The notes: generated by a model not told the origin, from the sequence alone. Positions 20,369 through 61,991 are shown, counted from the first letter of the stretch. The stretch: DNA of 64,000 nt from an uncultured Planctomycetota bacterium (GCA_963841915.1 CAWJEN010000006.1:320001-384000), one strand, 5' to 3'. Translations and numbers: made by a program.

Positions 20369-20384
20369 TGTTCCACGTGGAACA
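20369..20384. other. parS: parS centromere-like site
   Basis: Perfect intergenic palindrome TGTTCCACGTGGAACA matching the bacterial parS consensus; symmetry extends over 20368-20385. Confidence 0.85.
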
Positions 20385-30795: not shown

Positions 30796-32547
30796 TCACG
30801 CCATCCGCGGCACCGCCGCCAGCAGCTTTTTCGTGTACTCGTCCTGCGGGTCGTTCACGATCTGCTCTGTCGGCCCACGCTCGGCGATCTTGCCCTTGTA
30901 CATCACCAGCGTCTCGTCGGCGAGGTACTCTACCACGCCCAGGTTGTGCGTGATGAACAGGTACGTCAGCCCGAGCTGATCGCGCAGGTCCAGCAAGAGC
31001 TGCAACAGCTTGGCCTGCACGCTGACGTCGAGTGCGCTCGTCACCTCGTCACAGACAATGAACCGCGGGTTCGGCACGAGCGCCCGCGCGATGCCGATCC
31101 GCTGCCGCTGGCCACCGGAGAACTCGTGCGGGTAGCGCCGCAGCATGTCGGGCTCGAGCTCGACCCGTTTCATGAGGTCAGCGGCGAGGTCACGCTGCTC
31201 GGACTTGTTGCTGCCGATCTTGTGGACGTTCATGATCTCCTGCAGCATGCCGCCGATCGTCATGCGCGGGTTCAGCGCTGAATACGGGTCTTGAAAAACG
31301 ATCTGCATGTCCCGCCGCATCGACCGCAGCTCCCCGCCCGGCATGCCGACGAGTTCTCGACCTTCGAAGGACACCTCGCCACCTGTCGGCTCGACCAGCC
31401 GCAGGATCGCCCGGCCCAGCGTCGTCTTGCCGCTGCCCGACTCGCCAACGACCGCCAGAATTTGCTTACGCGGCAGATCGAAGCTTACGCCGTCGACGGC
31501 TTTAACGTGGTCGACCACACGCGAGAACAACCCCTTTCGCACCGGGAAGTGCACCTCCAGGTTGCGCACGCTCAGCACGTTCTCTGGTACGTCCTTGACG
31601 GCATGCTCGACGTGCACATGCTCGCTGGCATCTTGCTCCTGGACCACCTTCGCCGCCGCCCGCTGCTCGTCGCGACGCTTTTTCAGGTTCCGCGGCAGCG
31701 CGTCCAGCAACTCCCGCGTGTACGGGTGCTCTGCCTTGCGAAGCACTTCGTCCTTTGTGCCCTGCTCCACGACCTTGCCGTACCGCATAACCGCCACGTG
31801 CTGGGCGATCTCTGCGACGACGTCGAAGTCGTGCGTGATGAAGAGCACGCTCATGCCCTTGCGATCCTGGAGCTCGCGAATGAGCCGCAAGATCTCCGCC
31901 TGAATCGTCACGTCTAGGGCCGTCGTCGGCTCGTCGGCGATGAGCAGCTCCGGCTCACACGCCATCGCCATGGCGATCATCACGCGTTGCCGCATACCGC
32001 CGGAGAAGCGGTGCGGGTATTCGTCGACGGTGCTCTTGGCATCGCGGATCTGGACCTGCTCGAGCAGCTCGATGGTGCGGTCGCGTGCCTCGCGGCTGTT
32101 CATGTCGAGGTGCAGGCGAAGCACTTCTCCGATCTGGTCGCCGATCGTGTAGACCGGGTTGAGCGAGGTCATCGGCTCCTGGAAGATCATGCCGATCCGC
32201 CTGCCGCGGATAGACCGCATCTGCCGCTCGTTGGTTTGCATGAGGTCAACGGGTGCCGCCCCGCCTTCCCCGCGGAGCAGAATCTGCCCACCCGCATAAA
32301 ACCCCGGCGGCTGCGGCACGAGCTGCATGACGCTCAGCGCACTGATCGACTTACCGCTGCCCGACTCGCCGACGCAGCAGAAGGTCTCGCCCGGCTTGAT
32401 GTCGAACGAAACCCCATCGACCGCCTTGAGCGCATCCGCGGGCTTCTTGACGTCCCCAAAGTAGGTCCGCAGGTTCCGCACGGAGAGCAAAGGCCCTTCA
32501 GGCGCAGCGACAGCGGGCGACGTTACAGGCTCGGCCAGGACAGTCAT
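30796..32547 (-). CDS. Peptide/nickel-type ABC transporter ATP-binding protein with two fused ATPase domains
   Basis: Two GESGSGK Walker A motifs; FSGGMRQR and FSGGQRQR signatures. Confidence 0.93.
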   Translation of the reverse strand: MTVLAEPVTSPAVAAPEGPLLSVRNLRTYFGDVKKPADALKAVDGVSFDIKPGETFCCVGESGSGKSISALSVMQLVPQPPGFYAGGQILLRGEGGAAPVDLMQTNERQMRSIRGRRIGMIFQEPMTSLNPVYTIGDQIGEVLRLHLDMNSREARDRTIELLEQVQIRDAKSTVDEYPHRFSGGMRQRVMIAMAMACEPELLIADEPTTALDVTIQAEILRLIRELQDRKGMSVLFITHDFDVVAEIAQHVAVMRYGKVVEQGTKDEVLRKAEHPYTRELLDALPRNLKKRRDEQRAAAKVVQEQDASEHVHVEHAVKDVPENVLSVRNLEVHFPVRKGLFSRVVDHVKAVDGVSFDLPRKQILAVVGESGSGKTTLGRAILRLVEPTGGEVSFEGRELVGMPGGELRSMRRDMQIVFQDPYSALNPRMTIGGMLQEIMNVHKIGSNKSEQRDLAADLMKRVELEPDMLRRYPHEFSGGQRQRIGIARALVPNPRFIVCDEVTSALDVSVQAKLLQLLLDLRDQLGLTYLFITHNLGVVEYLADETLVMYKGKIAERGPTEQIVNDPQDEYTKKLLAAVPRMA

Positions 32548-32841
32548 GGGTGTCAGCTTAGGACAAACGACGCCTGATGCCTCACTGGCTGGTCAATACC
32601 TCGTCTGACGTCGCGCCGATTGCCACGTCGATCTGGATCGAGCCTCGGCGACCCGGCCGGCGGCAAAGCATCACCCCAGGACCTCTGCCGAGAGAAGCGC
32701 GAAAGAGCGAAGGTCTGAGGAAGGGGCGTTACATCACGACGCTTCGCCCGCCGACAGGCGAGGCGATGCGGGTGAAGAGGTTCGCAGAGGCTTCGGATGA
32801 TTGCCGGCTGCGTGACGGAACCCATTCGTTACACTGCGGCT

Positions 32842-34787
32842 GTGACAATTTCAGACGTCCGGCCGAACAGTGGCTGGCTGGGCCGATACCGCATCGTCGC
32901 TTGGACCGCGTTGGTGCTCCTGGCCGCACAGTTGATCCTGCGGTGCTTGCTTCTGCTTCGGTTTGCAGACACGACGGCACCGGGCGATGTGGTCCGGGCG
33001 ATGCTCGCCGGTTTGAGGTTTGACCTGCTGGTGACCGGGATTGTCGTATTGCCGCAGGTGCTGCACATGACGCTCCAGGGCGACGAGCGGGTGCGCGGGC
33101 GGCTGAGTCGCGTGTTGATTCACGTCGGGCTCGTTGTGTCGTTCGCGGTGCTGCTGTTCGTGATGGCCTCGGAGTACCTGTTTTTCGAGGAGTTCAGCTC
33201 GCGGCTCAACTACATCGCGTTCGAGTACCTCGTTTATCCGACGGAGGTGGCGACGAACATTTGGGAAAGTTTCCCGGTCGTACCGATCCTGCTGGCGGTC
33301 ACGATGGTGGCGGTGGCGATCTACTGGCCAATGCGGCCGATGATCCGGCGGGCGCTGGCCGTTGACGTGCCGGCCCGGCGCCGGTGGTCGGTCCTGGCAA
33401 TCTGGTTAGCGGGCATCGTGCTGCTCTGGACGACGACGACGCGGGCCACCATGAAGGTCGGCGAGGACCGCGTGGTCAACGAAATCGCCGGCAACGGGCT
33501 GTGGACGTTCGTCGAGAACGCGTGGACCAGCCGGTTCGACTACGACGCGTTCTACCCGACGCTGCCCGCGGCAGAGGCTGAGGCCATCGCCGCCGCCGAG
33601 GTGTTTCGTCCGGGCGAGGTACCTGCGGCGAATCCGGTCAATGTGCTCGACCGCATCGTCGACCCCGGCCGTCCCGCCAACGCCTACAACGTCATTGTCG
33701 TCCTTGAAGAAAGTCTCGGCTCCGACTTCATCGGCGTCCTCGGCGACGACCGCGGCCTGACGCCCAACCTCGACCGTCTCTCCGACGACGCCCTGCTGTT
33801 CGACAACTTCTACGCGACCGGCAACCGGACCGCGCGGCGCTCGAAGCCGTGATGACCGGCCTGCCGCCGATCCCGACGGAGTCGATTCTCAAGCGCGATC
33901 ACTCGACGAACGTCGAAAGCCTCGCCCGCATACTCAGCGAGCGCGACTACGCCACCACCTTCGTCTACGGCGGACGCGGCGTGTTCGACGGCATGCGCTC
34001 ATTCATGCTCGCAAACGGGTTTCAGAGGTTTGTGGAGCAGGCCGACTTCGAGAATCCCGGCTTCACCAACGCGTGGGGCGTCGACGATGAAGCCATATTC
34101 GACAAGGCGCTGCGGGAGTGTGACGACCGCCACGCCGACGGCCGGCCGTTCTTTACAACGATTTTGACGGTCTCGAACCACCGCCCGTACACCTACCCCG
34201 ACGGCCATATCGACCGGGCGAGCAGCGATCAGAAACGCGACAACGCGGTGAAGTACGCCGCCTACGCGGTCGGCCGCTTCTTCGAGAAGCTCAAGCAAAA
34301 GCCGTACTTCAACGACACGATGGTCGTGGTGCTGGGCGATCACGGGGCACGCGTGTACGGGGCTCAGCAGTTTCCCATTGAGAGTTATCGCGTGCCGGTG
34401 TGGCTGTTCCTGCCGAACCGGGAACAGGCCGGGGAGCGCAACAGCATCATGTCGTGCGCCCTCGACATCGCGCCGACGCTCCTGGGCCAACTCGGCGGCA
34501 CGTACCGCACCACCATGTTCGGCCGCGACGCCACGAGCGTTTCGCCCACGGAAGGTCGCGCGCTCATGCAGCACAACCACGAGTTGGCGTTGCTACGGCA
34601 CGACGGCCGCATGACGGTGCTGTCGCTCGCAGAAGCACCTGCGACCTACACGGTCGACGAAGTCACACGCGAAACCGAATCAGCGCCCATTGACCCGGCT
34701 GATGAACATACTGCGACGGCCATTTTCCAACTCGCCAACAGGCTCTATTACGACGACGACTATCGACACGGCGTCGACGTTCCGTAG
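32842..34787 (+). pseudogene. LTA synthase family / sulfatase-like membrane protein split by a 1-bp frameshift near 33836 (real lesion or sequencing error)
   Basis: About 5 TM helices, then VVLEESLG, TGNRT, SNHRPY and GDHG across two ORFs. Adding one G restores TGNRTARALEAVMTGLPP. Confidence 0.8.
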
Positions 34788-34898
34788 AGCCATCGAACGC
34801 AGATTGAGGCGGTAAGTCTTTGTCCAAACAACAATGAGCAAGGAACGACGTGGGCGCGGCACCGATGTTGCCGGTACCTTTCGGCTTGGTTGAACAAA

Positions 34899-47947: not shown

Positions 47948-48185
47948 GTGAGTCTAGGTAAACAGGAGGGGACGAACGGGACGAGGACTCTATCTAACAC
48001 CCTCGACCTGGCGGCCGTACTCGAAAATTTTGACTTGTCAAGGATTTTGTCCCTTTGCAAGTTGCGGTTTGTCGATCAGAGTTACAGGGGTCTCGTCGGA
48101 GGAACCCGTCCATGCCGTGCAAGGAATGGCAAGACGGTGCGACGACAGTTCGAACCTGCCCCCAACTCAGAAAAGTCCGGAGAAA

Positions 48186-48884
48186 ATGCGTCACAACCAA
48201 CCCCTTCACCTCGCCGCGGTCGCGGCCACTGTCTGCTTCGCTGTTGGTGCCGCTTCGAACACCGCCGAAGCTGTCGACGTCGAGGTGCAAATCACCGGTC
48301 TTGACCTGTTCTTCGGGTTTGAGAACCGGGGCAACATCCAGACGGGCCCCAGTGCTGGTGACGTCGACCAAGTCGAATCTGCCACCTTCTTTGTTGATGG
48401 TGTCCCGATCCAGACGATCGTCGGCAACATTGAGGCCAACATCGGCATTCCCGGTTTCGTCATTCCCGCCGCTGGTGGAACGGCCATGAACGAACTGGAG
48501 TTTGGCTACTTCAACATCGATTTCGATGCTGACACGGCCGGCTCGGGTTGGCTCGACCTGGACCTTGACGAGGCCTTCAACGTCACCGCCTTCTACACGG
48601 GCAACGAGCTGGGTATCAGCCTCTTCGGCACTGCCGATGCCCTTCAGTCGGCTCAACCGATCGCCCGCGTCCCCGGCTTCCCCGGCTTTGGACCCGACGA
48701 CACGATCACGTTCAGCTTCGTCAGCTCCAACCTGAGCAACGTCGAGCAGGACGGTCACGATCTGACGAAGTTCCGCGCGAGCGGCACCGGAAGCATCCAA
48801 GGCGGAAACGTCGTGCCTGAGCCGACCTCGATCGCGCTTGCCGGCATGGCCTCGGTGGCCCTGCTGCGTCGCCGCCGCGCTTGA
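48186..48884 (+). CDS. PEP-CTERM sorting domain protein
   Basis: Signal peptide and C-terminal VPEPTSIALAGMASVALLRRRRA. Confidence 0.93.
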   Translation: MRHNQPLHLAAVAATVCFAVGAASNTAEAVDVEVQITGLDLFFGFENRGNIQTGPSAGDVDQVESATFFVDGVPIQTIVGNIEANIGIPGFVIPAAGGTAMNELEFGYFNIDFDADTAGSGWLDLDLDEAFNVTAFYTGNELGISLFGTADALQSAQPIARVPGFPGFGPDDTITFSFVSSNLSNVEQDGHDLTKFRASGTGSIQGGNVVPEPTSIALAGMASVALLRRRRA

Positions 48885-48908
48885 GCTACATCTGAAACTC
48901 TCTCCCCG

Positions 48909-48936
48909 CCCGCCCGCACTTGTGCGGCGGGTTTTT
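48909..48936 (+). terminator. Rho-independent terminator
   Basis: GC-rich hairpin CCCGCCCGCAC-TT-GTGCGGCGGG followed by TTTTT, after the PEP-CTERM gene. Confidence 0.75.
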
Positions 48937-48953: not shown

Positions 48954-50744
48954 TCAACTTGCCGCGGCCCACGCCGCCAGGGTCGGCAGCTCGTCGTCAA
49001 AGAACGCCACAAGGTCAGCCAGCCGCGCCTCGTCCGACGCCCACCGGTCAAGCATCGCCCCGCGCGTGCGCTCGGGCGCGTCGAGGAGTCGCTCCCGCTG
49101 TCGCTGCCGCCACGCCTCGAAGTGGGCGTAGTCGGCCGCTTGGTCCCGCTTGAGCTCTGCCTCTCGACGGAGCAGGAACTCTCGGTGAGCCGACACATGC
49201 GCGTCTTCATCGCGAGCGGCGATTACTGCCGGCACCTGCCTGGCCGCCAGACGTCGTTGCTCGTCTTGAACGAACCGGTCGCCGTGCGTCCTGGCAGCAG
49301 ATGCCACGCTCGGCGGCATCGCTGCGCCGCCGGTCGTCTGACGGTCCCGCAACACCCGCTGGCCCAGACGGTGCCCGGCCTCGCGCGGCTCGACGCTCGG
49401 CAACGCCTCGTGCAATCGCCCCGCCGCCCGAAGGTCCGCCGCCGTCGGCTCTGCGACCGTCATGCCGTCTGTAACCATTCCTGCCACTCCCGCGTAGAAG
49501 CCGACCGCCAGCGACGCCGCAGGTGTGTCCGCCACGCTCGCCGGCTCCGGCCAATCTTCGACTAAAGCCCGCCTGAGCAGGCCCAGCCGGTTCCGCGACA
49601 CCGAACGACGCGGCAACCAGGCGAGCTGCCGGTCGATCACGTCAGCATCGAGCTCGCCGGCCAGCCAGTCAGCCGTGGCCTGGTCAAATCCGGCACGAGC
49701 CAACGCCGTCGCAGCAGCATCGACCGTGTGCTGTTTGAGAGTGTTTTTGGGAGGTGTCTTTTCTTCCTCTACTAAGGCCGGTGGCGAAACTGTACCGACG
49801 CCGGTGGGATTCGTGGACCGAGGCCGGTGGGTCTTTTGGACCGCTGTGCCGGTTGCTTTTTTGGACCGAGGCGAGCGGGCAGGCCGGTCGCCTTTTTGGA
49901 CCGACGCGCCGGTGCGGGTCGGTGGGGTTTCTGAACCGACTTGCCACCGCACGCCGTACTCGGCTGCGGTGCTGCACCGCCCGCCGTCTGGATCAAACGT
50001 GCCCGCCTGGGCCAGCCGGATGTAGCCGACATCGAGCGCGGCGTGGACGGCTTTGCTGAGCGTCTTGCGGTCGCTGATCCCGCAACGGCGCTGTAGCTCG
50101 CTGAAGCTCAAGGCCGTCTGCTGGCGTCGGCCACCGAATTGGTTCTGGTAGCCGATGGTCTGCCTCAAGACGATGCCGACGACGCGGCTAGTGGCCAGCG
50201 GCTCGCGTTTGACGATGTCGTCGAAGTAGGCGTCGGGGATGGGCGATCGTCTGCCTTCGCCGGTGTAGAAGCCGCGGAACGTGTGCGGGTCGCTTTGCCA
50301 CTCGCCGCTGTCGTCCCATCGCAGCTCGTAGCGGGCCGAGGCCGAGTCTTTGCCGACCGACTTGGCCCGGCCGCGAGCGACGATGCGGACGTAGCCGGCA
50401 TCAACGGCTTCGGCGACAGCTTTGCTGATCCCGCCGCGACTGATGCCGGCCTCATCGATGAGCTGCCGCCAGGTCACGCTGATCCGCTGCTCGATGGGCC
50501 GGCCGTCTGCTCCAAGCCAGCCGAGCGTTCGGCGGAGCAGGTAGCTCACGAGGCGAACACACCCGCGCGACTGGTTCGGCAGGCACAGCTCGAAGAACTG
50601 ATTGGGTGTGTAGATGTAGTTGGCGTTGATCGGCCGGAAGCCGGCGAACGCCTTGGCGTCGCTTGTTTCGCTGCGCGCGCCGAGCCCGCGAGCGGCTTTG
50701 GTGCCGCCGACGCGGGTGGCGTGGCTGAGCGATGCAGAGGGCAT
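48954..50744 (-). CDS. Putative replication initiator-like protein with duplicated winged-helix-type domain
   Basis: Two homologous repeats: F.GF...TPNQFF...LLRRTLGW...ISRGGISKAVAEAVDAGYV...YELRW and F.GF...IPDAYF...VLRQTIGY...ISDRKTLSKAVHAALDVGYI...YGVRW. A repeat-encoded linker and a helical C-terminus (NRLGLLRRALVEDW) follow. Function is inferred. Confidence 0.65.
   Translation of the reverse strand: MPSASLSHATRVGGTKAARGLGARSETSDAKAFAGFRPINANYIYTPNQFFELCLPNQSRGCVRLVSYLLRRTLGWLGADGRPIEQRISVTWRQLIDEAGISRGGISKAVAEAVDAGYVRIVARGRAKSVGKDSASARYELRWDDSGEWQSDPHTFRGFYTGEGRRSPIPDAYFDDIVKREPLATSRVVGIVLRQTIGYQNQFGGRRQQTALSFSELQRRCGISDRKTLSKAVHAALDVGYIRLAQAGTFDPDGGRCSTAAEYGVRWQVGSETPPTRTGASVQKGDRPARSPRSKKATGTAVQKTHRPRSTNPTGVGTVSPPALVEEEKTPPKNTLKQHTVDAAATALARAGFDQATADWLAGELDADVIDRQLAWLPRRSVSRNRLGLLRRALVEDWPEPASVADTPAASLAVGFYAGVAGMVTDGMTVAEPTAADLRAAGRLHEALPSVEPREAGHRLGQRVLRDRQTTGGAAMPPSVASAARTHGDRFVQDEQRRLAARQVPAVIAARDEDAHVSAHREFLLRREAELKRDQAADYAHFEAWRQRQRERLLDAPERTRGAMLDRWASDEARLADLVAFFDDELPTLAAWAAAS
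49778..49938. repeat. Six 20-bp iteron-like repeats (CGGT-N11-ACCG) inside the initiator-like gene
   Basis: Units start at 49778, 49801, 49824, 49849, 49884 and 49919; example CCGGTGGGTCTTTTGGACCG. Confidence 0.85.
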
Positions 50745-50847: not shown

Positions 50848-51057
50848 CTAACTGTCCTTCATCAGCGGCGGGAAGTGGGCGGCGTCGCAGAGGCCTTCCT
50901 CCTGCATGAGCCGGCGTACGAGCGTGTTGACCACGTACGACCGGTCTCGATCATGCCGGGCCATCAGCAGGTCGAGGTACGACCGGACGGCCGGCTCGAG
51001 GTTGACGGTCGTCACGACCTTCCTCCGCTTGGGTCGCCGCTTGGGGCTGGTGGGCAT
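50848..51057 (-). CDS. Small ribbon-helix-helix (CopG-like) protein
   Basis: VTTVNL beta strand, helix EPAVRSYLDLLMARH and helix RSYVVNTLVRRLM; sits just upstream of the initiator-like gene. Confidence 0.7.
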   Translation of the reverse strand: MPTSPKRRPKRRKVVTTVNLEPAVRSYLDLLMARHDRDRSYVVNTLVRRLMQEEGLCDAAHFPPLMKDS

Positions 51058-51208
51058 GGCAGGCTCGACGGGCTGGCTTGGTACATGCGGCGTCACACGG
51101 TGTCACGCGCTGCATTGCACTACAGCATGATACGAACCACCAGATGTTGTGGCCAAGATGATCGACGCGGCGCGCCAGGGGTGCAGCGGTTTCGCCTGAG
51201 ACGTGCGA

Positions 51209-53175: not shown

Positions 53176-54117
53176 TCAGCCTTGAGACGCACCGTCCGCC
53201 AACGCTGCCATGACGAGCTTCAGATCGCCCCACACCGCCTCACGATTGGCCCGCGTGTAGCTCCGCAGCAGGTACGCCGGGTGGTACGTCGGCATGACCT
53301 TGATCCCGCGCCACGTGTGGAACTGCCCCCGCATCTTGCCCATCGCCAATTGACCGCCCAGCAGGTGACGCGTCGCAGGTAGGCCCAGCGTCACGATCAC
53401 CTTCGGGCGGATCAGGTCGATCTGCTCGTGCAGGTAAGGCGTGCAGGTGGCCGTCTCGCTCGTCGTCGGCGCGCGGTTGCCCGGCGGGCGGCACTTGACG
53501 ATGTTGGCAATGTAGACGTCGTCGCGGCTTAACTTCATGCCCGCAATCATCTTGTCGAGCAACCCGCCCGCCTTGCCTACGAACGGGCGGCCTGACAGAT
53601 CCTCGTTCTCACCCGGACCTTCGCCGATGAACAGGAGGTCGGCCTCCGGATCACCCTCGCCGAAGACGGTGTTCGTCCGGTTCTCGCAGAGCTTGCACTT
53701 CGTGCAGCCGGTCACTTCGTTAGCATCGAGTGCCCCCAGCAGCTCGATCCGCTTGCCGCGCGGTTGCGGCGGGCTGTCGAACGGCTCGAGGTCTGCACCG
53801 ATGCCCGCGGCCGGTTTGACGACCGGGTTGCCGAACAAATCAAGGGTCGGCGGTTCGGGCGACTCATCGTCGTCTTCCGGCGGCGACGGCTGGGCGGTCC
53901 GCCCTGACGTTTGCCTCGGCCGACGGGTCGGCGGTCGGGTTGCGTCGGCCGAAGCGTCAGCCGTCTCGGCAGACGTCGCCGCCGGGCTCTCGGGCGCAGC
54001 CATCGCCGCGTCGAGATCGATGGTGCCGATGACGCTACTGACGCCGAACGCCCGTTCGGCTCGCAGCGTCGTGTCCAGCCGCGCCCGTAGCGCCTGTCGT
54101 GCCTCGTCCGACGTCAT
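53176..54117 (-). CDS. Uracil-DNA glycosylase family 4
   Basis: CTKCKLC, GEGPGENED, PFVG, NIVKCRPPGNR and YHPAYLLR. Confidence 0.93.
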   Translation of the reverse strand: MTSDEARQALRARLDTTLRAERAFGVSSVIGTIDLDAAMAAPESPAATSAETADASADATRPPTRRPRQTSGRTAQPSPPEDDDESPEPPTLDLFGNPVVKPAAGIGADLEPFDSPPQPRGKRIELLGALDANEVTGCTKCKLCENRTNTVFGEGDPEADLLFIGEGPGENEDLSGRPFVGKAGGLLDKMIAGMKLSRDDVYIANIVKCRPPGNRAPTTSETATCTPYLHEQIDLIRPKVIVTLGLPATRHLLGGQLAMGKMRGQFHTWRGIKVMPTYHPAYLLRSYTRANREAVWGDLKLVMAALADGASQG

Positions 54118-54135
54118 GGAAGAAGCCTAAGAGCC

Positions 54136-55170
54136 TCATCGCCCGGCGTACTGCTGCTCGTAGTAGTCGCGGTACGCGCCGCTCTTGATGCTCTGCCACC
54201 AGTCGGTGTGCGTCTTGTACCACTCGACCGTCTCGGCAATCGCTTCGTCCCAGCGTCGCTTGGGCTCCCAGCCGAGCTCACGCTTGATCTTGCTCGGGTC
54301 GATCGCATACCGGCGGTCGTGGCCCTTTCGGTCCTCGACGTAAGTCACGGCCTCGTCCCAGCTTCGGCCGCACAGCTCGATGAGCTTTTCGGTGATGGCG
54401 CGGTTCGTCTGCTCGTTGTTGCCGCCGACGTTGTAGACCTCGCCGGGGGTGCCCTTCTCGAGGACGGTCAGGATCGCGTCGCAGTGGTCGCTGACGTGAA
54501 GCCAGTCGCGGATGTTGAGGCCGTCCCCGTATAGCGGGACCTGCTTGCCCTCCATGAGGTTCGTGACGAACAGCGGGATGAGCTTTTCGGGGAACTGGAA
54601 CGGGCCGTAGTTGTTGCTGCAGCGCGTGATAAGCACCGGCATCTTGTGCGTTTCGTAGTACGCACGACACAGGCAGTCGCCGCCCGCCTTGCTCGCCGAA
54701 TAGGGGCTGTTGGGCTGCAGTGGCGTTTCCTCGGTGAACATGACCTCCGGCTTGTCCTCGGGCAGCGTGCCGTAGACCTCGTCGGTGCCGACGTTGAGGA
54801 ACCGGGTGACCTCAGCCGCCTTGGACAGGTCGAGCAGGACCTGCGTGCCGACGACATTCGTCGTCACAAAGTCGGCACTGCCCAGAATCGAGCGGTCGAC
54901 GTGGCTCTCGGCCGCGAAGTGGGCGACGCGCTTAACCTTGTGCCGGTCAAAGACCTGCTTCATGGCGTCGGCGTCGCGGATGTCGGCCTTCTCGAACGTC
55001 AGCTTGCCGCCGTCGATCAGGTCGCTGATGTTCGCCAGGTTGCCGGCGTAGGTCAGCGAGTCGAGGGCGACGACGTCATCGTACCCGCGCTCAGCGAGCA
55101 TGCGGACGAAGTTGCTGCCGATGAAGCCGGCAGCGCCGGTGACGAGAAGTGTGCCAGACGAGTCGCTCAT
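54136..55170 (-). CDS. rfbB: dTDP-glucose 4,6-dehydratase
   Basis: GAAGFIG, LTYAGN, AAESHVDRS, TDEVYG, YSASK and RKGHDRRY. Confidence 0.95.
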   Translation of the reverse strand: MSDSSGTLLVTGAAGFIGSNFVRMLAERGYDDVVALDSLTYAGNLANISDLIDGGKLTFEKADIRDADAMKQVFDRHKVKRVAHFAAESHVDRSILGSADFVTTNVVGTQVLLDLSKAAEVTRFLNVGTDEVYGTLPEDKPEVMFTEETPLQPNSPYSASKAGGDCLCRAYYETHKMPVLITRCSNNYGPFQFPEKLIPLFVTNLMEGKQVPLYGDGLNIRDWLHVSDHCDAILTVLEKGTPGEVYNVGGNNEQTNRAITEKLIELCGRSWDEAVTYVEDRKGHDRRYAIDPSKIKRELGWEPKRRWDEAIAETVEWYKTHTDWWQSIKSGAYRDYYEQQYAGR

Positions 55171-55244
55171 GCACGCCAAGCATCGGCAAAACGGACCTGC
55201 ATGCCAAGCGCGTACGTCCGAATGTGCGATAAAGCCTCTGACGC

Positions 55245-56312
55245 ATGCCAAACACCCACCGCCACACCTGGGCCTTGGCCGTCGCGACCTATGAGCGGCG
55301 GGAGGATCTGTGCACCTGCGTCGAGCTGGCCCTGAGCCAGTCACGACCACCGGCCGAAGTCGTCGTGGTCGACGCGTCTCGCGACTTCGACGGCAACAAG
55401 GCGGCCATCGAAGCCGTTGTTGGTCAACAGGTGCCGCTGATCTACGTGAAGGCCCGGCGGCCCAGCGCTGCTGTCCAGCGAAACCAGTGCGCCGACCTGG
55501 CGTCGGCGGACGTAGTCTTCCTGATCGACGACGACTCGCTGCTCTTCCCGGAGGCGGCAGCCCGGGTCATGCAGGTCTACGACGCCGACGTCGAGGGCCG
55601 TGTGGCCGGGGTAGCAACAAAACTTGCCCCGACGCCGCCGCCTGTCGACGGACAACCCGTTGCCGAGCAACAGGATGAGCCTGTCGGGCCGCACGGCGGC
55701 ATCGCCTTCACCGCCTACGGCCACAACCACGGCAAGCTTGGTCAGTGGCTCCGCAAGGTGCTCAAAAGCGACCAGCTTTTCGTTCCTTACGACGATGAAT
55801 TTCCGAGCCACGAACTGACATCCGCCCTGCTCGCTCTGCCGGTCGGTCCGCGGACGCTGATGGCCGGCATGAGCATGACTGCCCGGCGGCAACTTGTTGT
55901 CGAAGAACGCTTTGACGAAGAACTTCCCGATCGCGGCCCGGAGGACAGCGACCTGTCATATCGCCTCAGTCGCCGCGGTGCGTTGCTCACGCGGTTTGAC
56001 GCCCACATCCACCACGTCGGTTCGCCCACGGGTCGTTTGGCCAGCAGCGTCCGGTCAGCGGTGGACGCGGTGGCCCCGCTGATGCTGCACGGCAAGTACT
56101 CGACCGACCGGAACCGTTCGCTGCGTCGATCTAAGTCAATGCTGCGCAGGAGGATGCTGATGGGCGTGCTCAAGGACCTGCGCTTCGGTCGCCTGTCGCT
56201 GCCGACCGCTAAGGGGTTTTGGATCGGCCTGCGGGCGGTTCAGCCGCTGCTCGGCCGACCACGCGAGGAAGCCGATCGCTGGTTCGCGGCGTGGAAGCAG
56301 CGGATCCTGTAA
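55245..56312 (+). CDS. Glycosyltransferase family 2
   Basis: ATYERREDL, VVVDAS, QRN, LIDDD and EDSDLSYR. Confidence 0.85.
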   Translation: MPNTHRHTWALAVATYERREDLCTCVELALSQSRPPAEVVVVDASRDFDGNKAAIEAVVGQQVPLIYVKARRPSAAVQRNQCADLASADVVFLIDDDSLLFPEAAARVMQVYDADVEGRVAGVATKLAPTPPPVDGQPVAEQQDEPVGPHGGIAFTAYGHNHGKLGQWLRKVLKSDQLFVPYDDEFPSHELTSALLALPVGPRTLMAGMSMTARRQLVVEERFDEELPDRGPEDSDLSYRLSRRGALLTRFDAHIHHVGSPTGRLASSVRSAVDAVAPLMLHGKYSTDRNRSLRRSKSMLRRRMLMGVLKDLRFGRLSLPTAKGFWIGLRAVQPLLGRPREEADRWFAAWKQRIL

Positions 56313-56327
56313 CGCTTTGGTCAGCAG

Positions 56328-57131
56328 CTACTTCGGCCAACCAGCGCGGTTGGGATGTTTGCCGAGCGTCGCCAGGATCTCGTCCTTGACGCCTGAGCCG
56401 CAGGCGAGCCAGTCGGGGCCGTGAATGTCTTGCTTGCCGTCCCAGTTGCCCGCCCAGCCGCCTGCCTCCCGCATGATCGGAGGCATTGCGGCACAGTCCC
56501 ACGGGCTGATTTTCGGGTCGATCATCGCCTCTGCACGTCCTGTGGCCACAAGGGCGTAGCCGAACGCGTCGCCCCAGCCGCGGTTGAGTTTGGCCCGGTC
56601 GGCCAGATCGCGGTAGCCGTCGCTGCGGTCGATCGCCCGCGTGATGCTGCCGGCCAGGACGGTTGCTTGAGATAAGTCCTTGACCTGACTGCACCTGGAA
56701 CGGCGGCCGTTGTGCCAGCACCCTTCGCCGTCGGCGGCGATGATCAGCTCATCGAGGGCAGGCAGGTAGATCGCGCCGACCCGGCTGACGTCGTCGATCA
56801 GGCACGCCACGAGCGTCCCGTACAACGGCACGCCCTGGACGAAGCTCTTGGTCCCGTCGATGGGGTCGATGTACCACGTGTAGCGCGGGTCGCCTGGGTG
56901 GTCCTCGCGCTCTTCGCCCTTGATCGTGTGGTTCGGGTAGCGACGCGCAAGTTCTTCCCTGCAAGCATCTTCGACCAAGCGGTCGGCAACGGTGACGGGC
57001 GTGGCATCGTTCTTGGCTTCGACGCCTAACTGCTCGCCTTTGAGCCCGAAGTAGGCCAGCGAGCGTCGACCCGACGCAACGGCGGCGTCGGCACAAACGT
57101 CCATGAGCTCACGCAGCGAGGGTTCTGACAT
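56328..57131 (-). CDS. Inositol monophosphatase family protein, probable histidinol-phosphate phosphatase (HisN-like)
   Basis: TPVTVADR, GEE, WYIDPIDGTKSF, GWGDAFGY and WD motifs. Confidence 0.85.
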   Translation of the reverse strand: MSEPSLRELMDVCADAAVASGRRSLAYFGLKGEQLGVEAKNDATPVTVADRLVEDACREELARRYPNHTIKGEEREDHPGDPRYTWYIDPIDGTKSFVQGVPLYGTLVACLIDDVSRVGAIYLPALDELIIAADGEGCWHNGRRSRCSQVKDLSQATVLAGSITRAIDRSDGYRDLADRAKLNRGWGDAFGYALVATGRAEAMIDPKISPWDCAAMPPIMREAGGWAGNWDGKQDIHGPDWLACGSGVKDEILATLGKHPNRAGWPK

Positions 57132-57183
57132 GGTCGCAGGCTATGCGACGGCGATGCGGGTCGACAGCGGGTAGACTGCTGGC

Positions 57184-58188
57184 GTGCTCGGACGTGTGTC
57201 CCATCGGCTGCTGGCCCTGCTCCAGCTCACGCGGATGGCGCTGGTCTTCACCGCCATCAGCAACGGCTTGGCTGCCTTGGCGTTACGTCACGCCTACGCG
57301 GGCGACGTGACGCCCAATCTCGTCGTCGCCACACTCGCCGTCGCGATCGGGCTGTACGGGTACGGGATGGCGCTCAACGACATCATCGACCGTCGGCGGG
57401 ACCGTCAGTTGCAGCAGGCCAGGCCCCTGCCGAGTGGTCGCATCGGACTCATTTCAGCCGTATTGGCCTGTGTGGTGCTGCTGGGCGTCGCTGGCGTCGG
57501 GGGTTGGATGTTCGATCACCACGACCCGACCCACGATGCAGGCCGGGCGAGCCTCCTGCTCGTGCTCATTACTGCAATTCTGATAGCGACTTACGACACG
57601 GTCGGCAAGTACCTCGTCTGGGTAGGCCTGCTCCTGTTGGGGCTCGTGCGGTTCTTCCACGCGGCCGTGCCCGCCCCGCAGCTGCCGGTCGTATGGCATC
57701 CGCTGTTCCTGCTCAATCACGTTGCGATCGTCTCGGCCGTTGCGTACCGGTGGGAGGCTAAGCGCCCACCGCTGAGCGTCTTACAGGCGACGCTGCTGGG
57801 CAGCGGGCTCCTGGTCCTCAACGTCGGCCTCGTGACGGCCTTGTTCCTGAGGCGTGGCGAGGGATTCGCCGAGTCGCTCAGGATCACGCCCGCCCTGGCC
57901 CTGCCCTGTCTGGCGGCGGTCGGGTTCGCCTTCCTCGGCCGGGCGATCAAGGCTCGCGCCAACGACCGACGGGCGGCGGGTAAGGGTCTCATCCTCTACG
58001 GGCTCTTGTGGCTCATCGTCTACGACGCCCTCTTCGTCGCCGGCTACGTCAAAGTGTGGTGGGGTGTCGTCCTTTTGGCGCTCTGGCCTACGTCATACGG
58101 CGCGGTTCGTGCGATGCGGGTATGGTCCAATGCGTTCGATTTAGCACGCCGGCCGCAGTACGTCCGCGCCGATGAAGGCACCGCCTGA
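57184..58188 (+). CDS. UbiA prenyltransferase family protein
   Basis: LNDIIDRRRD and RPLPSGRI; multiple TM helices. Confidence 0.85.
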   Translation: MLGRVSHRLLALLQLTRMALVFTAISNGLAALALRHAYAGDVTPNLVVATLAVAIGLYGYGMALNDIIDRRRDRQLQQARPLPSGRIGLISAVLACVVLLGVAGVGGWMFDHHDPTHDAGRASLLLVLITAILIATYDTVGKYLVWVGLLLLGLVRFFHAAVPAPQLPVVWHPLFLLNHVAIVSAVAYRWEAKRPPLSVLQATLLGSGLLVLNVGLVTALFLRRGEGFAESLRITPALALPCLAAVGFAFLGRAIKARANDRRAAGKGLILYGLLWLIVYDALFVAGYVKVWWGVVLLALWPTSYGAVRAMRVWSNAFDLARRPQYVRADEGTA

Positions 58189-58341: not shown

Positions 58342-58968
58342 CTACGCCGCCTGGGCGAGCTTCGGGCCGGCCTTCTGAGCCTGGGCGCTGATGGCGTCGG
58401 CGAAGGCGTTCTTGAGGTGCTGCGGGAACTGACGAGCCGAGTCGTCGCCCCACTTGCCGCGGAGCGGGACGTCGCTGAGATCGAGCCGTCCGCGGGCGTC
58501 CCAGAGCAGGTCGACGAGGGCCTCGAACATCTCGCTGGCCTTGGCGTCGGGTTGGGGGCCGTACTCCTGGACGAGCCACAGCAGCTCGCGGGCGCGGTCG
58601 AGGGTCTCGGGCCGCATGTTGATCTGCTTGCGAGGCGGGCCGCTCCGCTCGAACTTCGACCGGGCCGACGCCGGCAAGGTGGTCGTCGACCCCCCCGCAC
58701 CGCCCTGCCCTGCCGCCTGTCTCCTGGGCGTGGTGCGACGGACGACCGGCTTTGCGGCAGGCTGCTCGGCTTCGATTGGGGCCGGTTTCGGCTCCGGGGC
58801 CGCCTCTTGTTTGACGGCCGGGGGTGTGGGGGCGTCGTCAAGATAATCGCCCAGTTGGACCGGCTGAGCCGGCTTGCGGCCGAGCATGGGCGAGCCCAAG
58901 CCGAAACCGGCCGGCAGCCCGCGGGCCTGGGCCGGGCGACGCTGCTTCGTGTCATTGGTGTCGTTCAT
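58342..58968 (-). CDS. Hypothetical ParA partner; putative centromere-binding adaptor (not ParB-like)
   Basis: Starts 5 bp after the parA stop. Long Pro/Ala-rich disordered N-terminus, then an RHH-like segment RKQINMRPETLDRARELL...KASEMFEALVDLL. Confidence 0.6.
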   Translation of the reverse strand: MNDTNDTKQRRPAQARGLPAGFGLGSPMLGRKPAQPVQLGDYLDDAPTPPAVKQEAAPEPKPAPIEAEQPAAKPVVRRTTPRRQAAGQGGAGGSTTTLPASARSKFERSGPPRKQINMRPETLDRARELLWLVQEYGPQPDAKASEMFEALVDLLWDARGRLDLSDVPLRGKWGDDSARQFPQHLKNAFADAISAQAQKAGPKLAQAA

Positions 58969-58972
58969 GGAC

Positions 58973-59989
58973 TCAGGCAACGGCGGCCTCCTTCTTGGTC
59001 TTGCGGGTCTGGGCGGTCGTGTGCTTGGCCACGACGTCAGGGTTGAGGGTCAGCTCGGCGGTGGGCTCGATCGTCTCGCCCCGCCGCTCGGCCTCCCACG
59101 AGTCGATGCGGCCGATGAGCTCGCGCGCAACCTTGGCAAACTGCTGGCTGGCCGGCTGGTCGGGGGCGTGCTCGAAGATCGTGCGGTTGTACACGGTCGC
59201 CTCGCGGTGCCGGACGCTGGTGTTGACCGTCGTCGAGAACAGGACGCCCTCGCCGTACGTCTCCTGCAGGCGGGCGTAGAGGTCGCGGTCGAGCCGGGCC
59301 ACATGGTTGAAGTTGCCCAGCAACACGCCCAAAAGCTCGAGGTCGGGGTTAAACCGCTGGCGGACCTTTTCGGCGGTGCGGGCCAGGTCGATGAGGCCCT
59401 TCATGTCGTAGCCGCTGGGGAACGTCGGGATCAGCAGCCAGTCTGCGGCGATCAGGCTGGTCGTCATCAGGTAGCCCAGCTCGGGCGGCGTATCGATCAC
59501 GACAAAGTCGTACCGGCCACGCAACGCGTCGAGCGACCGCTTGAGCCGGGTGCGGTGCGTGTCACGCAGTTCGTCGGCATCGAGCGGCGACGCCCCGCCG
59601 CCAGCGAGTTGGCCGTGCATGTCGGCCTCGAGCCGCTTTTCAACGGTGCCGAGACCGCGGTTGCCGGGGATGAGCGACGGCCGGATGCCGTGCGCACCGA
59701 AGGCCGGCTCTTCGCCGTCAGCGAGTGCAGGCGGGACGAAGATCTCGACCTCGGTGGCCGGCACGTCGGTGAGGTAGACGTCGGCGAGGCTCAGTCCGCC
59801 GGCGGCGGCGTGGGCGTCACGGTCGAGGCCGAGGTGATCGGTGGTGTTGCACTGCGGGTCGGTGTCGACAAGGCAGCAGGTGTAGCCGAGCTTGACGAAC
59901 GCCGCCGCCAGGGAGATTGCGGTGGTGCTTTTGCCGCAACCGCCCTTCTGGTTGGCGAGCGTGATGATCTGGGTGTGGTCGAGTTTCAT
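58973..59989 (-). CDS. parA: ParA/Soj family Walker-type ATPase
   Basis: NQKGGCGKSTT, LVDTDPQCN, YDFVVIDTPP and LGVLL; no N-terminal HTH. Confidence 0.92.
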   Translation of the reverse strand: MKLDHTQIITLANQKGGCGKSTTAISLAAAFVKLGYTCCLVDTDPQCNTTDHLGLDRDAHAAAGGLSLADVYLTDVPATEVEIFVPPALADGEEPAFGAHGIRPSLIPGNRGLGTVEKRLEADMHGQLAGGGASPLDADELRDTHRTRLKRSLDALRGRYDFVVIDTPPELGYLMTTSLIAADWLLIPTFPSGYDMKGLIDLARTAEKVRQRFNPDLELLGVLLGNFNHVARLDRDLYARLQETYGEGVLFSTTVNTSVRHREATVYNRTIFEHAPDQPASQQFAKVARELIGRIDSWEAERRGETIEPTAELTLNPDVVAKHTTAQTRKTKKEAAVA

Positions 59990-60151: not shown

Positions 60152-60303
60152 AGGCACGGAGGCACGGAGGCACGGAGGCACGGAGGCACGGAGGCACGGA
60201 GGCACGGAGGCACGGAGGCACGGAGGCACGGAGGCACGGAGGCACGGAGGTGCGGAGGCACGGAGGTGCGGAGGTGCGGAGGTGCGGCAGTATGGAGGCA
60301 CAC
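60152..60303 (+). repeat. 8-bp tandem array (AGGCACGG/AGGTGCGG) upstream of parA
   Basis: Twelve perfect AGGCACGG units (60152-60247), then AGGTGCGG, AGGCACGG, three AGGTGCGG, CAGTATGG and AGGCACAC in the same register. Confidence 0.95.
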
Positions 60304-60479
60304 TGTTGCAGTGGCGTGCGGATACGCCGGGATGCTGGTCCGGCGGATCAGCGGTCGGCTGCGATGGCGGATCAGGTGGCTGCCGGTCGGCTGCTGAAGC
60401 GGTGCTGCGGTGGGCCAGTGCTCCTCTGGGTGATCCGCTGCAGCGGTCGACCTGTTGGCGGCCATGGCAGCGTGGCACT

Positions 60480-60505
60480 GTGGCAGTGTGGAGGCACACT
60501 GCCAC
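60480..60505. repeat. Perfect 11-bp inverted repeat sharing the array's GGAGGCAC core
   Basis: GTGGCAGTGTG-GAGG-CACACTGCCAC. Confidence 0.85.
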
Positions 60506-60682
60506 GCCGGACTAGCGGCGCTACGGCATGCTGGGGCAGCGGTTTGGCGGTCTGCCGGATGTGCTCGATGCCGACGCAACGGCCTAGCGGCAGATCGTCA
60601 TGCCGTTAGTGCTCTGCAGCGGTCAAGCCGTGAGCACCTGCCTCAGAATCACTAATCCTCTTTGAAAAACGGCAAATCTAAC

Positions 60683-60944: not shown

Positions 60945-61781
60945 TCAGTTCTGCGACGGCCCGTAGGCCGACTGGACGAGCTCGCGGATGATCGCAGCAA
61001 CGGCTGACGGGTCCTCGATCGGGCTCATGTGCCCGACACCTTCGAGAATGGACAGGGTGCCGAGCTTGGGTTGATCGGCGACCGCTTGGGCCTCGGCAAG
61101 CTGAACGATCTGATCCTCTTGACCGGCCACGACGGCTACGGGAATCCGCAGTCCCTTGAGCACGCCGGAATAATCCTTGCGATCTCCCATGGCCCTGGAC
61201 GCGCGGCCGATGGTCGGTGCGGGCGTGTCGAGCATCAGGCGCAGGAGGCTCTCGCTGCAACCGGGCGCGTTGCGGTAGGTGTCGTGGGCGAGCATCTTGG
61301 GGTGCATGCCGTCGACGACGGCCGCGGTGCCGCGGGCGTTGGCGAGGTTGGCCGTGGCGACCCGCGCCGCCTTGGCCGCTTCACCGTCGGCGGCCGACCG
61401 CGTGTTGACAAGGCCTAGCCCTAGCAGGTCGTCCGCCCACTGGTCGGCGAACGACTGGGCGACGTACCCGCCCATGGACAGCCCGACCATCACGCAAGGT
61501 AGGGCGTCGAGCTCGATCAGCAACGCCCGAACGTCGCCCGCCAGCTCCTCGATCGTAAAATCCTCGTCGGCGACGAAAGGGCCGAAGCCGCGCAGGTTCG
61601 GGCAAATAACGCGGTAGTCGGCCGCCAGGAGCTGGGCCACATCGTGCCAGATGCGCGCGTTGAGGGGGAAGCCGTGCAACAGGACGACCGTCTTGACCAC
61701 ACTGCCATCGGGATCGGCGGGCGACACGGGACCGTCGACGTGATACGTGGTGGTTCTGCCTTGAAGTACGAGCTTTTTCAT
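60945..61781 (-). CDS. Alpha/beta hydrolase
   Basis: LLHGFP, LRGFG, GLSMGG nucleophile elbow, ED and GHMSPIE. Confidence 0.92.
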   Translation of the reverse strand: MKKLVLQGRTTTYHVDGPVSPADPDGSVVKTVVLLHGFPLNARIWHDVAQLLAADYRVICPNLRGFGPFVADEDFTIEELAGDVRALLIELDALPCVMVGLSMGGYVAQSFADQWADDLLGLGLVNTRSAADGEAAKAARVATANLANARGTAAVVDGMHPKMLAHDTYRNAPGCSESLLRLMLDTPAPTIGRASRAMGDRKDYSGVLKGLRIPVAVVAGQEDQIVQLAEAQAVADQPKLGTLSILEGVGHMSPIEDPSAVAAIIRELVQSAYGPSQN

Positions 61782-61991
61782 AGCAGTTGGGATCTCGGTT
61801 GCCCGCGGGTACAAGAAGTGCACATCAAAAGTGCGATGTCGACATCCCGGCCGGGCCAAACTCGGTCTGTGAACGGTATAGACCGCTTGTGTCGGGCGTG
61901 GCAACAGGCAAAGTTTCGAAGCGATCAAGGTGGGGGCAGCATCCTGGGCTCCAGAGCGTCGACCATCTGCTGCGTCCCGTACGCTTGCGGT

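Follow-up and report, generated by a model that had tools for sequence, protein, structure and literature searches.

A candidate plasmid-type replication origin inside the gene of a tandem winged-helix initiator-like protein, likely stranded around dnaA in a planctomycete chromosome

An array of repeats beside a T-rich tract lies inside an initiator-like gene of an uncultured planctomycete. The question is whether it constitutes a replication origin bound by the protein encoded around it, as the initial annotation had proposed on the model of lambda ori. The window, i.e., the whole stretch of 64,000 nucleotides analysed here (GCA_963841915.1 CAWJEN010000006.1:320001-384000), belongs to contig C6 of a genome in 6 contigs (G000), and the array is located at 369.8 kb of C6. 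We suggest that the repeats and the A+T tract are the oriV of a plasmid/ICE-type replicon, placed inside the gene of its likely initiator (Rep) and lying within an integrated small plasmid. As a full account of the locus this is probable; at the level of the family, the array can be called the cognate origin with high confidence. The features are collected in Table 1.

Table 1. Features of the rep locus, the inserted segment and its flanks (positions in the window).
Feature	Position	Strand	Basis
Left flank: PEP-CTERM gene and terminator	48030..48935	+	
rep gene, 596 aa (P0001): WH1, WH2, linker, 4-helix domain, helical tail	48954..50744	-	ORF and predicted structure
A-rich tract (T-rich on +), low stability, directly 3' of last repeat	49737..49776	-	40-mer stability
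Array of six iteron-like 19-bp repeats	49779..49938	-	Motif and weight-matrix scans, G060 comparison
Winged-helix domain 2, aa ~166-267; R226 opens predicted recognition helix	49944..50249	-	Predicted structure, covariation
Winged-helix domain 1, aa ~43-142; G104 opens predicted recognition helix	50319..50618	-	Predicted structure, covariation
CopG-like small protein, 82 aa, upstream of rep	50848..51096	-	Neighbour cluster, annotated counterpart
Sigma-70-like promoter match upstream of RHH-rep	51127..51156	-	Consensus scan
Chromosomal dnaA (one of two in the genome), in 12-kb inserted segment	51297..52724	-	
Rest of host block: UDG, RmlB-like dehydratase, GT2, inositol monophosphatase, UbiA-family gene	53176..58188	.	
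ORF directly behind parA, candidate type Ib centromere-binding protein (CBP)	58342..58980	-	
Element-type ParA ATPase	58973..59989	-	AAA_31
16 tandem copies of AGGCACGG upstream of parA	60152..60298	.	
rep-parA spacer remnant	60293..60531	-	Alignment score 75 vs shuffled maximum 38
Right flank: alpha/beta-hydrolase gene	60945..61823	-	

The 19-bp cores start at 49779, 49802, 49825, 49850, 49885 and 49920, with spacings of 23, 23, 25, 35 and 35 bp (35/35/25/23/23 read along the gene), which confirms by position the six CGGT-N11-ACCG repeats noticed initially. Their coding-strand consensus is CGGT(T/C)CA(A/G)AAANNNNACCG. All six carry A7 and C17, and a T run of at least three bases occurs in four of them, in line with the T-tract ascribed to most repeats. 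The window contains 7 matches to CGGT-N11-ACCG vs 2.17 expected, and at least 7 were found in 0 of 100 shuffles. Genome-wide, the motif is not enriched (113 sites; spacers of N5-N19 give 102-207), and the array is the sole cluster with more than two sites in the whole 3.63-Mb genome. A weight matrix was built from 71 homologous linkers, with neither the window nor its nearest relative (locus L059 of genome G060) among them. It gave 181 sites of at least 10 bits across the genome; the array was the sole cluster of more than two and included the three top sites. The G060 array has the identical 160-bp geometry, with an identity of 80% for the repeats vs 48% for the spacers. The T-rich stretch reported beside the array was also borne out: positions 49733-49775 are 60% A+T (20 T and 6 A of 43) vs 32% across the gene, and the 40-mer at 49737 is the least stable in the gene, below 99.95% of the genome's 40-mers. 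This A+T tract is likely the unwinding element.

Most homologous genes carry arrays at the same place, as the initial proposal implied. The genome scan yielded 114 relatives, 80 of which entered the analysis; eight with open frames of at most 400 aa were dropped, the window and L059 were kept out of the training, and 71 linkers remained. These linkers hold 296 repeats, at least four in 64 of the 71 and, by the family matrix, zero in three. The last two spacings are 23 and then 25 bp in 54 of 71 linkers, and the 45 bp after the last repeat exceed the gene in A+T in 67 of 68 homologues. Multiples of three are rare among the family spacings (16/228), so the repeats are conserved at the DNA level, as had been claimed. 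Reading the array as a peptide repeat is ruled out by the frame shifts between repeats. The family consensus (71 linkers) is C(G/A)GT(T/C)C(A/G)AAAANCNNAC(C)(A/G)G, with the A-tract on the coding strand. The original description of the repeats as dyad-symmetric held in part. Symmetry does not go beyond the outer 4 bp of the 19-bp core, and CGGT-N11-ACCG is exact in 51 of the 296 family repeats (17%). Thus, the repeats are polar direct repeats.

The structure of Rep, predicted from a 70-sequence alignment (mean pLDDT 83), contains two winged-helix (WH) domains followed by a disordered linker at aa 271-337 (pLDDT <50), which in the model coincides exactly with the array. A small 4-helix domain is predicted at aa ~338-401, and then a helical tail. 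Searched against 48,161 representative solved chains, the model matched iteron-bound pi best (2nra; Z 10.3, rmsd 4.3, 197 aligned). RepE (1rep) scored Z 9.7 and RctB (5tbf) Z 7.8; single WH domains reached Z 8.2 at most, and Foldseek against RepE gave an E of only 7e-3. The 4-helix domain predicted alone reached pLDDT 87, with a best fold match of Z 5.4, none clear, and no Pfam match. A PDB sequence search with Rep returned no match, and at E 0.01 none of the 70 members matched Rep_3 (PF01051), Phage_rep_O (PF04492), RepA_N (PF06970) or RPA (PF10134). The best Pfam match of the window protein is MarR_2, found in 10 of 70 members; HTH_36 was found weakly in three. PHROG O-like matches were weak (E 6e-4), and BFVD look-alikes include O-like phage proteins. 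In the ESM Atlas, the N-terminus resembles, among others, RepA_N, Phage_rep_O and HTH_36 clusters (0.92-0.93), which is a lead only. By sequence, support for an initiator family is weak. The MarR_2 match would suit another reading, in which the repeats would be bound without acting as an origin (as an autoregulatory roadblock, an incompatibility or a centromere-like site) and the protein would regulate the element. However, the best fold matches are initiators, the A+T tract is always on one side of the repeats and the 23/25 phasing is fixed.

The protein had also been proposed to bind the repeats, and residue-base covariation supports it as the likely binder. Four repeat positions were scanned against about 300 protein columns in 65 loci with at least four repeats, the window included. 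Base 17 is C with Arg226 and non-C otherwise in 63 of 65 loci (best of 300 columns; the next best has 11 mismatches). Base 7 is A with Gly104 and non-A otherwise, likewise in 63 of 65 (best of 300 columns; next best, 8 mismatches). The crossed residue-base pairs disagree in 36 and 34 of the 65 loci. In a tree computed with the recognition helices removed, both pairs show 6-7 changes each, on common branches, with 7 joint steps each. Residue positions 104 and 226 are encoded outside the array, both at the starts of predicted recognition helices (WH1 and WH2), and the window protein carries G104 and R226. The pairs were chosen by scanning, not predicted beforehand, and represent a correlation among loci that, where related, share states; it points to G104 of WH1 reading the left half of the repeat (base 7) and R226 of WH2 reading the right half (base 17). 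Covariation of this kind points away from a dimer on the dyad and towards a monomer reading a polar repeat, which fits pi/RepE-type binding and not the lambda O dimer on an inverted repeat. Since it supports binding as such, it would also serve the regulatory reading given above.

Plasmid initiators bind direct repeats as monomers, with one WH per half, as described in the accessible part of PMC5043065. Like pi (R6K, 2nra) and RepE (mini-F, 1rep), the family has a predicted tandem WH pair over ~190 aligned residues, direct repeats of ~19-22 bp beside an A+T tract and a plasmid with par genes. Unlike pi and RepE, it gives no Rep_3 match in 70 members and shares 10-13% identity with them; its WH domains (WH1 vs WH2) are still 29% identical to each other, its repeats lie inside the gene, and there are extra C-terminal domains. 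For ori-lambda, the accessible part of PMC5043065 describes four 19-bp repeats and then an A+T tract of ~40 bp inside the initiator gene, a small repressor gene upstream, and O binding as a dimer to near-perfect inverted repeats. In the family, repeats (six in the window, exactly four in 49 of 71 members) are likewise followed by an A+T tract inside the initiator gene, and a small gene for a likely repressor precedes it. In contrast to lambda O, the dyad is 4 bp long and rarely exact, each chain has two WH domains, and PF04492 is not matched. There is no P gene and no phage gene; parA/parB stand behind rep instead. Hence, the claim of an origin inside an initiator gene stands as regards the iteron-like repeats and the A+T tract, present alongside them in nearly all homologues. 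Its lambda-type detail gives way to a plasmid/ICE-type system with pi/RepE-like tandem winged helices and a fit to monomers on polar repeats.

Origins inside the rep ORF and coupled to a par locus occur in repABC and several Gram-positive plasmids, according to the accessible part of PMC3155836. The family resembles RepC of repABC plasmids and the RepA_N plasmids (pSK41, pAD1, pLS32) in both respects, while p42d repC, unlike the family, is without iterons. It differs from RepA_N/repABC in the lack of a PF06970 match and in the gene order RHH-rep-parA-parB. RepA_N initiators have a single WH domain, whereas the family has two, and RepA_N plasmids have a DnaD/DnaB-like C-terminal domain. In the accessible part of bioRxiv 10.1101/2024.01.22.576637, RPA and HTH_36 initiators are the only ones given for known planctomycete plasmid replicons. 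The family shares with the plasmids described there the phylum, iterons in or close to the initiator gene and type I par systems, but it has no RPA (PF10134) match and only the three weak HTH_36 matches. Unlike an integrative conjugative element, the window copy has no integrase inside the element.

The family comprises 348 clusters at 50% identity (E ≤1e-30) from Planctomycetota, Verrucomicrobiota, Armatimonadota, Omnitrophota, Chloroflexota and other phyla. It is patchy and often multi-copy: the gene was found in 4 of 41 relatives and in 25 of 141 genomes from the family to which the host belongs, and the metagenome scan gave one locus (L123). Neighbours in 86 sequences include ParA (40), ParB (31), a coupling-protein-like ATPase (29), a tyrosine integrase (11), DnaB (6) and Replic_Relax relaxase clusters (15, 6 and 5). 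A small RHH-like gene upstream of rep, with parA and parB downstream, forms the conserved order; toxin-antitoxin pairs and ArdC are further conserved neighbours, and an integrase lies beside rep in many other members. In the single-contig genome G130, two chromosomal copies each have parA, parB and a relaxase, with an integrase beside one rep. The DnaB helicase gene follows rep directly in six loci (L011, L016, L020, L035, L055, L071), which suggests that the initiator may work with a DnaB-type helicase. In 32 loci (among L008-L041, L055, L056 and L071; mostly Planctomycetia), an unnamed protein of 200-330 aa with a coiled-coil-like tail is encoded ~0.6-1.2 kb upstream of rep, and no parA/parB was found behind rep there. 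It is possibly a single-protein partition or control factor.

A tblastn search of PLSDB found no match in 72,556 plasmids. Among 50,697 phage records there were three matches, all to one 42,586-bp molecule (ON073792.1, PP438434.1, PP438404.1). ON073792.1 is a closed circle with RHH-rep-parA-parB, a recombinase and polysaccharide genes, and it carries the repeats; its 36 annotated CDS include no virion gene and no other replication gene. Therefore, it is likely a plasmid with the family Rep as its only initiator. The three records (locus L093) are filed as Aphanizomenon and Planktothrix phages. As the RHH gene of ON073792.1 matches the Fimbriimonadaceae locus L061, the host is likely a culture companion. 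Judged by its gene company, the family is of plasmid/ICE type and not phage. A reading as the O-gene origin left by a lambdoid prophage, with which the position inside a gene, the PHROG matches and the BFVD look-alikes would agree, is largely refuted and hardly credible: IMG/VR contained no relative in 125 candidate stretches (0/125), the sole molecule from the phage records has no virion gene in its record ON073792.1, and no phage gene occurs in the window or in the 32 conserved neighbour clusters scanned. As for the binding array without origin function, parA/parB directly behind the gene in many loci would agree with it, but Rep is the only candidate initiator of the closed plasmid, and the window has a distinct centromere-like array in front of parA. 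We consider that reading improbable and retain that of an origin.

In the window, the cassette is split. Its parA-CBP half is located 7.2 kb upstream of RHH-rep, with UbiA, IMPase, GT2, RmlB, UDG and dnaA between; the UDG-dnaA and RmlB-to-UbiA blocks are located elsewhere in relatives. The 82-aa protein has no Pfam match. Its BLAST-linked cluster immediately precedes rep in 19 of 86 sequences and its ON073792.1 counterpart is annotated as a ribbon-helix-helix protein, so it is likely a ribbon-helix-helix autorepressor. The region upstream of RHH-rep is conserved in G060 (alignment score 67 vs shuffled maximum 38). The window ParA, 8 kb upstream, was rejected as a chromosomal Soj because no more than 2 of 141 family genomes contain a close match. 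It shows 82% to the ParA that follows rep directly in G060. The ORF behind it, also without a Pfam match, occurs in 3 of 401 class genomes (61-67% to G060), and a homologue lies behind a ParA on a 41-kb mobile contig, G356:C2; it is likely a type Ib centromere-binding protein. The 16-copy 8-bp array is likely a centromere/operator, and related GTGGAGGCACAC copies are present at 60488 and 58318 and also behind the CBP gene in G060. On G356:C2 (L149-L151), the related ParA-CBP pair at 31269-34864 is accompanied by an integrase and ArdC, and an unnamed 493-aa helix-turn-helix-like protein is divergent from the pair; no match to the window Rep was found in G356. Elsewhere in the window (32797-34787), a sulfatase is apparently split over two overlapping ORFs by a frameshift or an assembly error.

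In a quick tree, the window Rep forms a well-supported clade with P0002-P0006, of which G060:C15 (L059) is the only member with context. There, RHH-rep-spacer-parA-CBP forms one 5-kb block amid housekeeping genes, with a frameshifted rep, and the counterpart of the window's spacer remnant begins ~130 bp behind the rep stop codon. The two loci can be read as different linear cuts of one circle, from which we infer a circular plasmid ancestor. In the congener G001, the PEP-CTERM and hydrolase genes are direct neighbours and the site lacks the 12-kb segment; this empty site was seen in one of five relatives examined, the other four being rearranged there. Because the cassette is split, permuted and brackets a host block at a site that is empty in G001, an integrated plasmid origin is likely. 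At the junctions, the longest word in common is 9 bp; no target repeat was seen there, nor any integrase or relaxase. The genome has four tyrosine recombinases, the nearest ~80 kb from the element, and the window ORFs include no relaxase or coupling protein; the genome search with PF13814 gave no match, and neither did the control genomes. Vertical inheritance of the cassette in G000 and G060, as judged from equal dS, was an unusable argument, synonymous sites being near saturation. A free plasmid (a plasmid-prime with dnaA) joined into the chromosome by the assembler would also give a circularly permuted replicon in a six-contig assembly, and the one DNA run with a small share of this genome yielded short pieces, none of them bridging the junctions. 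However, both flanks are collinear with G001, there is no repeat that could mislead an assembler and the composition is host-like, which makes an artefact of this kind very improbable.

If the plasmid is integrated, its origin may be active as a domesticated, second or substitute chromosomal origin, the replicon having carried dnaA there. All cassette ORFs are intact with host-like GC3 (0.79-0.90), the array geometry equals that of G060 with repeats better preserved than spacers, and the promoter region is conserved. The dN/dS values between G000 and G060 are 0.14 for WH2, 0.17 for ParA and 0.32 for CBP (those for parA, CBP and the rep C-terminal part being taken from automatic gene calls). 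As synonymous sites are near saturation, this selection may date from the plasmid phase. Both subtype copies with context (G000 and G060) are chromosomal and without mobility genes, and no DnaA-box cluster (≤1 mismatch) occurs near dnaA. A GC-skew minimum of C6 lies 18 kb from the array, with more minima on C5 and C6. On the other hand, the strand-corrected minimum of C6 is at 351.6 kb with a 95% interval of 333-368 kb, so that the array falls outside; in a two-segment model, such a shift has a chance of 0.03 were the switch at the array. No skew switch is seen over 80 kb around the G060 cassette. The skew is patchy in G001 too, and several minima can therefore arise by rearrangement. GC skew argues mildly against firing of the window origin in the chromosome, and we regard an active chromosomal origin as unlikely. 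The same degree of doubt applies to its fuller version, in which a replicon of new architecture took up dnaA as an autonomous 12-kb circle, re-integrated and is now an active, selected second origin. The window origin looks intact, yet is most likely repressed or secondary to the DnaA origin.

Strand-corrected GC-skew minima in the genome number three (C5 ~432-475 kb, C6 ~352 kb and C6 ~1330 kb). The second dnaA is at C6:510955, and a canonical DnaA-box cluster is present at neither dnaA. Reading the array as part of the chromosomal oriC was rejected: there is no DnaA-box cluster near dnaA, congeners have no such gene at dnaA, and the homologues lie away from dnaA. The parS sites are uninformative here because they are spread genome-wide. 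In G000, 129 palindromes which we take to be of the parS type (121 exact TGTTCCACGTGGAACA) occur on five of six contigs, e.g., at 20369 of the window (C6:340369). Outside called genes there are 122 of them, often in pairs 58-86 bp apart and in clusters every 11-132 kb, with one parB in the genome. Most of the 141 family genomes have 0-4 such sites, compared with 66 in G083, 29 in G048 and 19 in G085; the congeners have 0-2. This genome-wide expansion arose more than once and is possibly more surprising than the origin itself.

For the favoured reading, an integrated plasmid origin inside its initiator gene, the following mechanism can be put forward. One Rep monomer would occupy each repeat, its WH1 contacting the left half (CGGTyCA) and its WH2 the right half (ACCG), as in pi/RepE. 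The A-tracts may bend the array, and the Rep-bound array would melt the adjoining A+T tract, after which the small C-terminal domain may recruit host helicase-loading functions as a putative partner. Repression of the shared promoter and control of copy number would fall to the RHH protein, and partition of the circle to ParA, CBP and the 8-bp array. This circle, RHH-rep-spacer-parA-CBP, may have carried the host block from UbiA to dnaA already or received it later. It would have been opened between rep and parA and would now lie between the PEP-CTERM and hydrolase genes.

Taken singly, an origin within an initiator gene and an iteron initiator with tandem WH domains are textbook knowledge. 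Their combination, a lambda-like origin placement with a RepE-like tandem WH within a single widespread family, seems not to have been described in the sources we searched, and the literature covered, with most subscription journals outside its scope, contained no description of the family. We are likely dealing with an undescribed replicon family of PVC and related bacteria, whose copy in the window is stranded around dnaA. Planctomycetes lack replicative vectors, as stated in the accessible part of bioRxiv 10.1101/2024.01.22.576637. The 2.3-kb RHH-rep unit, which would hold its own origin, is a direct candidate for such a vector, and the two specificity residues predict compatible variants. 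Furthermore, the permuted cassette around dnaA indicates a way in which the initiator gene of a chromosome may be moved by a plasmid replicon.
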